Of a stretch of DNA of 64,000 nucleotides, positions 25,188-46,778 are shown piece after piece (the first letter of the stretch is position 1; every line of letters starts with the position of its first letter). The stretch comes from Chrysomallon squamiferum (Eukaryota > Animalia > Mollusca): NCBI GenBank assembly GCA_012295275.1, contig CM022666.1:16120001-16184000 (forward strand). Direction: 5' to 3'. Below the pieces are notes generated by a model. It was not told where the DNA came from. It saw only the letters and a list, made by a program, of their open reading frames with translations, and searched no databases. The position numbers and the translations under genes were made by a program.

Positions 25188-26204
25188 TCACAGCTGAAAC
25201 GCCGAGACAGGCGTTCTTTTGTAGAAACTGTGGATGTTGTTACTTCTCTTGTCGTCTCTGACGCCGTCGTCTACGTCTTCCATATTTAGAGACTCGTCCG
25301 CGTTTGAGCCCTTCTCCTCGTCCTCGCGTTTGTAAAAGCCGCTAACCTCAGCTGGGCCTCTTTTGTAAAAGCCGTATACCTCGCCCGGGCCTCTTTTGTA
25401 AAATCCGTTTAAATCGCCCGGACTTCTTTTGTAGAAACTGTTGACGCCGCTAGGAGGAGACCTTTTGTAGAAGCTGGCGACGTCTCCATGGTTACGCTTG
25501 TAAAAGCTGCTCACGTCTTGAAGGCCTCGTTTGTAGAAGCTGTTCTGTTCCCCTGGCCACCGTTTGTAGAAGCTGCTGAGATTGTCCAGCGCGCGTTTGT
25601 AAAAACTGCTGACAGGCTGAGCAGGACTCCTCTTATAGAAACTGTTCACGTCGTCAGAGAATCGTTTGTAGAAACTATTCAGGCCACGTTTGTAAAAACT
25701 GCTGACGTCATTACCTCCACGTTTGTAGAAACTGCTGACGTCATTGAAGTCCACGTTTGTAGAAACTGCTGACGTCGTTACCTCCACGTTTGTAGAAACT
25801 GCTGACGTCATTCAGTCCACGTTTGTAAAAGCTGTTCACGTCTTTAACTCCACGTTTGTAGAAACTGCTGACGTCATTCAGTCCACGTTTGTAAAAGCTG
25901 CTCGAACCGTCGTTTCTTCGTTTGTAAAAGCTTTGCAGGTCTCCTGGGCCCCGCTTGTAAAAACTGTTAACTCCTCTTTTGTAGAAGGAGTTCACGTCTC
26001 CTGCACGTTTGTAGAAGCTGCTGACGTCACGCTTGTAGAAACTATTTAAGTCTTCGACGCTGCGTTTGTAAACATGGTCGTCCTGGGAAACATAGTTCTC
26101 CGTGACGTCCCTCTTGTAGAAGTTTTTGAGACTGTTGCCAAGTCGACGCTTGTAAAAAGAACTCAGACCGTCGCGTGATTTCTTCTTCAGTTCGTGATAG
26201 GGAA
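25188..26204 (-). CDS. Exon 5 (last) of the neuropeptide precursor: array of 26 xxxFY-KR peptides, with a +1 frameshift at about 25746
   Basis: Acceptor tttcag ends at 26205 (phase 1). Reads (V)PYHELKKKSRDGLSSFYKRRLGNSLKNFYKR...GGNDVSSFYKRGL, then one extra base, then NDVSSFYKR...SNNIHSFYKRTPVSAFQL-stop. Shows KR convertase sites, acidic spacers and synonymous variation among FYKR codons (TTT/TTC, TAC/TAT, AAA/AAG, CGT/AGA/CGG). Confidence 0.92.
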
Positions 26205-26331
26205 CTGAAATTTATAAAATTCAAAATTTGTAACAAACAGAATACAAATGTGTAAACTAAGAAATTTAAGTTTGGCTAATGTTGATAACTGGGAAAATAT
26301 TTATTGCATAACGTTATGTACACAATTTGCT

Positions 26332-26650
26332 ACATACATACATACATACATACATACATACATACATACATACATACATACATACATACATACATACATA
26401 CATACATACATACATACATACATACATACATATCTATCTATCCATATACACACACACACACTCACATACACACACACATATATAGGCACTTATATGCATA
26501 CATACATATATACACACATACATACATACACACATACATACATACATACACACATACATACTTACTCACACTCATACATACATACACATACATACATACA
26601 CACATACATACATTTATATATACATACATTCATAAAAATATATACATACT
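26332..26650. repeat. (TACA)n microsatellite with degenerate CA/TA-rich extension
   Basis: Visible tetranucleotide run in intron 4. Confidence 0.9.
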
Positions 26651-44300: not shown

Positions 44301-46706
44301 AAAAAAAAAAAAAAAAAAATAAATAAATAGCTAAGAAATTGGATTAGTCCTGTGTGTGCTTCCCATTTATCAAAATCTATCTTGTACGGTGACAGTGACG
44401 TCATCAGCTAACTTTTTTTCCGCCATTCTGGAGATTTTGGTTGAAGACGGGAGGCAGCTTAGTGTAGAGGTTTGACTTAAACCAACGAGGCGCGAGTCAT
44501 TTCGTTGTGGACAATACTGATAATAATGAAAAAGCAAATCCGCTTTATCAAGCAGCGTCTTTACTTTTTTTTTTTTTTTTTTTTTAATTACAAATAAGCA
44601 ACAAGAGATGATGTTTATGTACCTTCCCGACAGTATGAAGCGTCGTTATTTTAAAAAAAAAAAATAATAATAATATTAAATTATTCAAAAAGATTCTTTT
44701 ATGTCGTAAGTCAACTGTTTTACGTTTTCGTTGACAAATTTGGTCAGAGTCTGTTATTACAATTTATGTTATCAGTCCATTATCATCTTACAAATACTTC
44801 ACACTGCGACGTAGTGTTTTTTAGTTACAAACTCTGTTTTTTCTAGATATTCTAACGTGATTCCTTGATGAAGAAAAAAAAAATCTCTTTTACACGGCGA
44901 AGAAAAAAGTAGAAGCGTGTGTCTCAGAATAAAAAAAAAAAAAAAAAAAATTTTTTTTTTTCGGATCACTTCTATATTAAAAATTAGGATTTTCTGCTGA
45001 TAGTCATCAGCAATTGACAACCACAATCATAACTTGACTACTGGTCACGCCATCATAGTTTATATACAAAGTGTTCTTATTAACAGAAACGTCATTTTTG
45101 ATTTTTTTAAATAACGTTGCGAACTGGCAGATGTGGAGGGATTTATTACAAACATGACGTCATTTTCCTTATTATGACGTAGCAATGGAACCACAACATG
45201 GTTATGATCGCTGAAATTCTCAAGCATTTTCAATTATTGCTACTCCCTAATTTCCCGAACTAAACCAGGTTCTATCGGAAATGTTTAGCGTTAGCTAGTG
45301 TTGATTTAATTTATCTCTCTTGTTTCAGTTCCCTGGAGAACAAAAATTCATTTGTTGTTACAAATTGCTATATAACCGTCAAAATTCAGACCAAATTAAT
45401 AATATTAATTGTAATAATAAAATATAACATTTACTCTCTCTCTCTCTCTCTCTCTCTCTCTCTCTCTCTCTCTCTCTCTCTCTCTCTCTCTCTCTCTCTC
45501 TCTCTCTCTCTCTCTCTCTCTCTCTCTCATTTTCTATTACAGATTCGTCTTAACCACTTTTTTATTTTATGCAGTTGACTTAACTGGTCTGCTTCGATCA
45601 ACAATTACTGCTGACTTAGGATTTGACAAATTGTTCTTTCAGCCTTACAGAAGTGATACGGGGATGGGGGAGCTAGCTACCCACGGGCAATTTAAATTTA
45701 GACATTCGATATTAGCTGTGCGCATATTCTGACGTCTGTTTTAGCAGCATTGTATCGTTTCATACTGGGTTGTCACTTCTGTTTTAATTTTAGATGTAAT
45801 TTCCTTGATTGTGTTCAATGCGGGTTTGAAACAAACAGCGATTATTTTTTGTTTTTTCATTTCTTGCATAAATTTAAACGACAAACTAATGACAGAAAAA
45901 TTAGCAAAAATAGTAAGAAAGATTGTATGAGAAGAAAGAAACAAAGAAAATAAATCAACAAAAACAAATAAAACAACTGAAGAGAAAGGTTTCAAAAATC
46001 AATAATTTAATTCTAGGATAAATTGTGAAAAATAATAAATCAAGTAAAAACTGCTCTTTACGAGCTGGATCAGCTTACGATAAATGCGTCCGTGTTTTAT
46101 CAGTAATGTCCGTGTTTTACGTTTTAGTTCATTGCTTTTGTCCGCAATATTTTAAAGCATACTGAATAGGTCCGTTAAGTTATACCCTTTTAATTCAGTT
46201 AGATATGTCCGTGATAAGTTCGGTAATTATGTCCGTATTTTTGTTGAATTATATGAATTAACAAAATTAAGTTGATTCTGATATTCATTTCTAAAACTTT
46301 TTAAAGAAGATATCTAAGTGTATCATCATCATTATATCATCATCACCTTTATTATTATTATTATTATTATTATTATTATTATAATAATTATTATTATTAA
46401 TATGAACATATATGAACTATCTTGAACATTTTCCACGTAATTAAATCTTTAGTTATAGACATATATATGTGTATATATATACATATATACATACATACTC
46501 ACACACACATACACACACACTCACATACACACACACACACACACACACACACACAAACATACCAGTACAAACAATACACGAACACACATTTTATGCGAGT
46601 GACCATCAATTCTTGCACTATGTCACAACAAGGAGAACAGGGAAAACAAATAAAAATCAAACATAGAATAAAATTAAATAAATAAACAAACAAAAACAAA
46701 ACTCAC

Positions 46707-46778
46707 CACATCTTGCTGGTACGTGCTGCCCCAAACTGCTGCTAGCGAGAGAAACCAGAGAGGTTTAAACAAAACCAT
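46707..46778 (-). CDS. Exon 1 (signal peptide) of the neuropeptide precursor
   Basis: actATGG start, then MVLFKPLWFLSLAAVWGSTYQQDV and donor GTG|GTGAGT at 46706. 72 nt, phase 0. Hydrophobic core with likely cleavage after VWG. Linkage to exon 2 across a 12.2-kb intron is inferred from phase and strand. Confidence 0.75.

Follow-up and report, generated by a model that had tools for sequence, protein, structure and literature searches.

Analysis of a 64,000-nucleotide (nt) stretch of contig CM022666.1 (assembly GCA_012295275.1, forward-strand positions 16,120,001 to 16,184,000; here called the window, whose own numbering is used throughout) identified a five-exon gene on the minus strand, with its coding sequence between positions 46778 and 25188. 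The gene is real, and it likely represents the mollusc FYFY neuropeptide precursor in a multi-copy form. We consider it highly probable that the gene encodes an Argos-related domain of ten cysteines (Cys) joined to 26 Phe-Tyr (FY) repeats flanked by Lys-Arg (KR), and that processing of this multi-copy FYFY precursor would yield one folded domain and many peptides. The architecture is not new, as it is that of the published FYFY family; the window gene is a new and ordinary member of a little-studied family.

The gene and its probable place in the FYFY family

The open reading frame is spliced from five minus-strand exons, with all four introns bounded by GT..AG and with intron phases of 0, 2, 0 and 1. 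The features of the gene are as follows.

46707..46778, minus strand: coding exon 1 (72 nt), a predicted signal peptide of 24 codons with a phase-0 donor, assigned from its hydrophobicity.
34363..34526, minus strand: exon 2 (164 nt), Cys1-Cys5, in domain 1 of the Argos-like/2FTX pair; it ends in phase 2, inside a Trp codon.
29183..29282, minus strand: exon 3 (100 nt), Cys6-Cys7; it completes the WYGMCRP motif and has a phase-0 donor.
28860..28974, minus strand: exon 4 (115 nt), Cys8-Cys10 of domain 2, with a phase-1 donor.
25188..26204, minus strand: coding part of exon 5 (1017 nt), comprising the KKKSR linker, the array, an acidic spacer, the tail and the stop, assigned from contigs and three related array proteins.
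24936..25187, minus strand: likely 3' untranslated region, with AATAAA at 24941-24936; a contig of run X1 (25003-25267) crosses the stop.
25746..25747, minus strand: surplus base in a 33-nt repeat unit, indicated by contigs of two studies and by the array spacing.

The coding exons sum to 1468 nt, which is 1 nt more than a protein of 488 amino acids (aa) and its stop codon need, and the reading frame of the exons as assembled stops at 304 aa. These borders, phases and the sum agree with a preliminary description of the window, which had proposed five minus-strand GT-AG exons in phases 0, 2, 0 and 1 and a protein of about 488 aa once a frameshift was corrected. A search of 29.5 kb upstream of exon 2 with a strict donor pattern gave three ATG..GT(A/G)AG phase-0 candidates, of which only exon 1 was clearly hydrophobic; its hydrophobic core (2.26 over 9 residues) was the best of the three, and the N-terminus of the product is predicted to be signal-peptide-like. 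Four runs (X1 to X4) were compared over the region 24900-26320. Exon 5 was partly covered by contigs from two RNA libraries, and one X3 contig ended at 26207, at most 3 nt from the acceptor of exon 5, a hint of that border and no more.

The ten Cys of the domain are distributed 0|5|2|3 across exons 1-4, with a spacing of 6,16,1,5,19,8,22,1,31, and the domain is acidic (isoelectric point, pI, of 4.35). The basic linker KKKSR separates it from the array, in which 26 FY-KR units, representing 24 distinct peptides, are accompanied by one VY-KR unit, an acidic spacer and a tail at the C-terminus. The FY units end in SFY (22 units), GFY (three) or NFY (one), and an amide-donor Gly was absent from all units of the array. 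Among the codons for F, Y, K and R in the array, the wobble positions vary while the residues stay constant, and this synonymous variation is consistent with selection on the ends of the peptides. The middle of the array (25677-25966) is a young 33-nt tandem expansion of alternating units, with a 66-nt period and 91% matches, between diverged flanks.

Three proteins related to the second half of the array were found among 5841 candidates, and the fusion of domain and array was present in two of the three array-hit clusters. P0001, a Logan protein of 571 aa, begins like a signal peptide and continues with the ten-Cys domain and an array containing 25 FYK[RK] sites. P0003 is a short form whose cluster contains two proteins of Pomacea canaliculata (XP_025080196.1 and PVD19090.1), both of which carry domain and array; the Pomacea fusion protein has 13 FYK[RK] sites. 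Such single fusion proteins in other species bear out the proposal that an Argos-related 10-Cys domain and a KR-delimited FY array belong to one precursor. All ten Cys align among the window, Pomacea and P0001 domains. The spliced window domain scored 158 against the Pomacea domain (P0006) and 105 against P0001; none of 500 Cys-fixed shuffles reached either score (maxima of 71 and 66), and the kinship is therefore not due to chance. When a profile built from two relatives outside the window was searched against the six frames of the window, exon 2 was ranked first (E = 3.9e-6) and exon 3 second (E = 0.1, under the inclusion threshold); exon 4 was not listed in that search, and it aligns to the QCRC/HCRC segment of P0006 and P0001.

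FYFY was named from scallop ganglia (PMC5996578), and FYFY precursors have been described as a long 10-Cys peptide with a C-terminal FYFY peptide (PMC8398477, section 2.7). A form with 41 FY-only copies is known from Lottia, the oyster peptide GGFRKFYFY was detected by mass spectrometry, and oyster FYFY2, the more expressed paralog in ganglia, has the domain but not the peptide (PMC8398477). The Ka/Ks of FYFY between scallop and oyster was 0.198 (PMC5996578 supplement). The window gene has three features of FYFY precursors, namely the predicted signal peptide, ten Cys in the conserved pattern and multiple FY copies between basic sites. The scallop precursor shares with it the WYGMCRP motif, which straddles the exon 2-3 junction in the window, and the Cys3-Cys7 spacing of 1,5,19,8 (counted by eye in the scallop). 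The preliminary description had not recognised the architecture as that of a named family; with the FYFY precursors of section 2.7, including the 41-copy Lottia form, this novelty no longer holds. Lottia and Pomacea are known to have the multi-copy form, which makes a gastropod the likely source, and by analogy with oyster and scallop the gene would be expressed in the nervous tissue of this species.

Relationship of the ten-cysteine domain to Argos

Profile A2 was searched against 177,635 PDB sequences and matched Argos (3C9A, residues 26-122) with E = 6.2e-8, the next match having E = 0.45. Profile A3 gave the same Argos result, and the Pomacea domain P0006 alone matched only Argos among the PDB sequences, weakly (E = 0.069). 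In Pfam, one of the five alignment members, the Pomacea domain, matched the Argos family (PF11581) with 21.5 bits and E = 2.5e-4, which is under the gathering cut-off of 25. The Atlas leads pointed to Argos-bearing clusters, with scores below 0.9. By sequence, the relationship of the Cys domain to Argos domains 1-2 holds, as had been proposed from its 6+4 Cys, and five disulfides would be expected in the domain. Of the anticipated database matches to Argos, the profile match to 3C9A stood; the Pfam match fell short of the cut-off. Argos domain 3 is absent, only ten Cys being present before the array begins; replacement of the third module by the array, as had also been suggested, is one possible history.

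Argos residues 13-63 were matched by the second half of profile A2 as well, which points to domains 1 and 2 as internal repeats. An unnamed mollusc Atlas cluster (168 aa, 82 members, no Pfam assignment) scored 0.77-0.83, and could represent bivalve FYFY or a short three-domain snail protein.

Several results weigh against the overall interpretation. None of the three Cys exons of the window matched Pfam Argos singly, and exon 2 alone gave no match to the PDB sequences. Two AlphaFold models of the domain were of low confidence (predicted local distance difference test scores, pLDDT, of 39 and 37) and had no significant fold match. The third array protein, P0002 (472 aa), has a 20-unit FY array but no Cys domain, no Cys among its first 200 residues and no clear signal peptide; it may be incomplete, a fragment, or else represent an unfused form. 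Exon 1, which lies 12 kb away, had neither homology nor read support. No splice junction was bridged by reads in the four runs, and junctions 1-3 had no read evidence.

The term 'argos' does not occur in the main texts of PMC5996578 and PMC8398477. No link between FYFY and Argos or the 2FTX proteins was found in the literature searched, with subscription journals and part of the supplements lying outside it.

Possible roles of the domain and integrity of the locus

By analogy with prohormone biology, the precursor would enter the regulated secretory pathway, where prohormone convertases would cut at KR and carboxypeptidase E would trim the ends. The products would be approximately 26 free-acid, non-amidated peptides, mostly of 8-10 residues and ending in SFY, GFY or NFY, released with one folded domain of approximately 140 residues that is likely freed at KKKSR. 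A G-protein-coupled receptor is the likely target of the peptides, engaged through their C-terminal FY, and the number of copies likely increases the amount of peptide obtained from each precursor. Most likely the domain is secreted as a binding protein for an extracellular partner of its own; it is probably not a peptide carrier, and probably not an Argos-type clamp of an epidermal growth factor (EGF) either. A role of its own is supported by oyster FYFY2, in which the domain persists without the peptide, and by the scallop-oyster Ka/Ks.

A carrier or sorting function of the neurophysin kind, in which the domain would bind FY peptides inside secretory granules and do nothing outside the cell, is unlikely. 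The presence of domain and peptide in one precursor, at 1:1 in scallop and Sinanodonta, would be consistent with such a function, as would the aromatic ends of the peptides, the acidity of the domain in the window gene and the analogy with neurophysin itself. However, the domain to peptide ratio is 1:26 in the window gene, 1:13 in Pomacea and 1:41 in Lottia, the oyster FYFY2 domain would have no peptide to carry, and many 2FTX relatives have been described as stand-alone secreted proteins (PMC12514838).

An Argos-like role, in which the domain would sequester a growth factor of the EGF type that is released in the vicinity of the same neurons, is quite unlikely. The profile match to Argos domains 1-2 is compatible with it, and a modulation of EGF receptor signalling by protostome Argos-like proteins has been the subject of speculation (PMC12514838). 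Argos, however, binds Spitz by clamping it with domains 2 and 3, and growth-factor binding was judged unlikely for two-domain forms (PMC12514838). As domain 3 is missing from the ten-Cys window domain, a trap of the Argos type is unlikely, and the best Pfam Argos score remains below the cut-off. The growth-factor trap named as an option in the preliminary description is thus weakened.

The surplus base in the array bears on whether the gene is intact. One of 26 spacings between YKR codon runs was off-frame (34 nt), and one base was absent at 25746/25747 in the contigs of X1, an RNA library, and of X3, which come from two different studies; X2 had no coverage of this site, and X4 gave no contig. 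The read-supported 65-nt form differs by at least two mismatches from every other repeat copy. The surplus base is likely a sequencing or assembly error, and could instead be a private allele. A damaged allele or pseudogene, with a frameshift genuine in the sequenced animal, is very unlikely: the base is present in the assembly, and none of the compared runs is known to be DNA of the sequenced individual, but it is missing from the contigs of two studies, every splice site and both halves of the array are intact, and it falls within a two-base run. Short runs of the same base are a typical site of long-read error.

That this is a venom or defence gene with a two-finger toxin as its domain is highly improbable: the two-domain size and the 0,2,0 phases are those of 2FTX conotoxins and one Atlas lead was automatically named 'Turripeptide OL22' (0.86), but the cluster of that lead is mostly arthropod with a score below 0.9, the core is conserved rather than hypervariable, the same fusion occurs in Pomacea with close forms in bivalve ganglia, and no such array was seen by eye in the conotoxin precursors of Data S2, in the available portion of PMC12514838. 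The toxin-like effector that had also been suggested is unlikely for this gene, given its presence in Pomacea and bivalves; the reverse relation to toxins, with this gene as an ancestor of venom genes, is possible.

The window as a whole is AT-rich animal DNA, rich in microsatellites. On the plus strand, an intronless open frame at 19094-20203 (369 codons) encodes a membrane anchor and a Glyco_transf_11 domain (E = 6e-37), of the alpha-1,2-fucosyltransferase type; it converges on the FYFY gene and lies ~5 kb downstream of the FYFY stop. Minisatellites are present at 2231-3601 (38 nt), 24126-24335 (41 nt) and 33870-34306 (26 nt), the last of which begins just beyond the exon-2 donor.

Two-finger proteins, conotoxins and comparison with known systems

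Approximately 1800 (~1800) protostome 2FTX proteins have been grouped into 12 clusters, of which cluster A was predicted to be two-domain (PMC12514838). Its representative, KAL3848361.1 of Sinanodonta woodiana, has the core spacing of the window domain and ends in KR..RR-FYFY. This protein is evidently an FYFY precursor that was not recognised as such, and cluster A is likely the FYFY neuropeptide family; in the available portion of PMC12514838, 'fyfy' does not occur and KAL3848361.1 is not named as a neuropeptide precursor. The Cys domain of FYFY precursors would accordingly appear, from its sequence, to be a two-finger (2FTX) domain pair, a link that we did not find in print.

The exon structure of the window gene is of relevance to the origin of two-finger toxins. 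In five of the 2FTX conotoxin superfamilies the genes consist of four exons in phases 0,2,0 (with one exception), and in the E superfamily of three exons in phases 0,2; exon 1 of MMLFM encodes the signal peptide, and the mature part is split over three exons irrespective of the domain borders (PMC12514838). The known endogenous snail 2FTX gene has three domains and phases 0,1,0, and the conclusion drawn was that a relationship to the toxins is not immediately evident (PMC12514838). The window gene encodes two domains; its signal exon is followed by three Cys exons that run across the domain borders, in phases 0,2,0, and the array lies on a further exon of its own. First introns favour phase 1 in conotoxins, neuropeptides and secreted proteins, and one in phase 0 is atypical for them (PMC12621736). 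The terms 'FYFY', 'argos' and 'two-finger' are absent from the main text of that preprint on neuropeptide-derived toxins.

We put forward tentatively, as a possibility, that the six two-finger macro-conotoxin superfamilies descend from the FYFY gene, which would be their missing endogenous ancestor. The agreement of its first four exons with the 2FTX conotoxins, in phases 0,2,0 and in two-domain size, is a second link that we did not encounter in the literature searched. An FYFY duplicate would have lost the fifth exon with the array and kept the signal exon and the three Cys exons (0,2,0). Several observations speak against such an origin. The full phase match has a chance level of ~4-5%, calculated with general or uniform phase frequencies, and was recognised post hoc; the three-domain snail gene also has a phase-0 first intron; and other gastropod 2FTX paralogs may share the 0,2,0 pattern. 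No toxin was among the matches of profiles A2 and A3 to the PDB sequences up to E = 10, the inclusion of 9FRQ among these sequences being uncertain. By eye, the toxins were no closer to the window domain than Argos, and the Cys6-Cys7 segment resembled MMLFM, Unknown and Argos alike.

If the proposal is true, a large toxin clan would derive from the folded head of a neuropeptide precursor, and not from its peptides or from a three-domain Argos-like gene. FYFY neurons would then co-release a two-finger protein, whose receptor may be a venom target. The window gene is a candidate toxin ancestor with matching phases and size, whereas the known snail counterpart differed in its phases and in its third domain. 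It also joins two fields that were not connected in the literature searched, peptidomics, in which FYFY is described without a fold, and venom structural biology, in which the two-finger fold is described and the origin of the toxins is open, and gives one of the uncharacterised 2FTX proteins a cellular context, that of predicted co-release with neuropeptides. The main value lies in the assignment of the Argos-like fold family to FYFY and in a testable candidate ancestor for the two-finger conotoxins.

Among known systems, the mollusc FYFY precursors (scallop MH045256, oyster Cragi-FYFY1 and Cragi-FYFY2, and Lottia) resemble the window gene in the signal peptide, the 10-Cys long peptide, the basic sites and the C-terminal FY-type peptide. 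The Lottia form has a multi-copy FY-only array, as does the window gene, whereas bivalve FYFY precursors have one FYFY peptide in place of 26 copies with mostly SFY ends. Pomacea XP_025080196.1 (uncharacterized) and Logan P0001, neither of which has a functional name, share the whole architecture and all ten Cys; the Pomacea protein differs by a long spacer and 13 FY peptides, and P0001 yields 26 peptides when split, some of them very short. KAL3848361.1 has the LPEC, AVCS, EPG and WYG-CRPVSE segments of the window gene, with a single peptide.

Drosophila Argos (giant-lens; 3C9A, PF11581) is likewise secreted and matches by profile in domains 1-2, with a Cys3-Cys7 spacing of 1,5,21,8 as compared with 1,5,19,8 in the window. 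The window gene differs from it in the absence of domain 3, and hence of a Spitz clamp, in the peptide array and in a match that falls under the Pfam cut-off. The 2FTX conotoxins (MLSML, MMLFM, Unknown, MARFL, unk2 as well as E) resemble the window gene in having domains 1-2 only, with a signal exon and three mature exons in phases 0,2,0, and MMLFM has the same 10-Cys order. They are unlike it in that they have no fifth exon or peptide array, have shorter loops and are positively selected venom genes.

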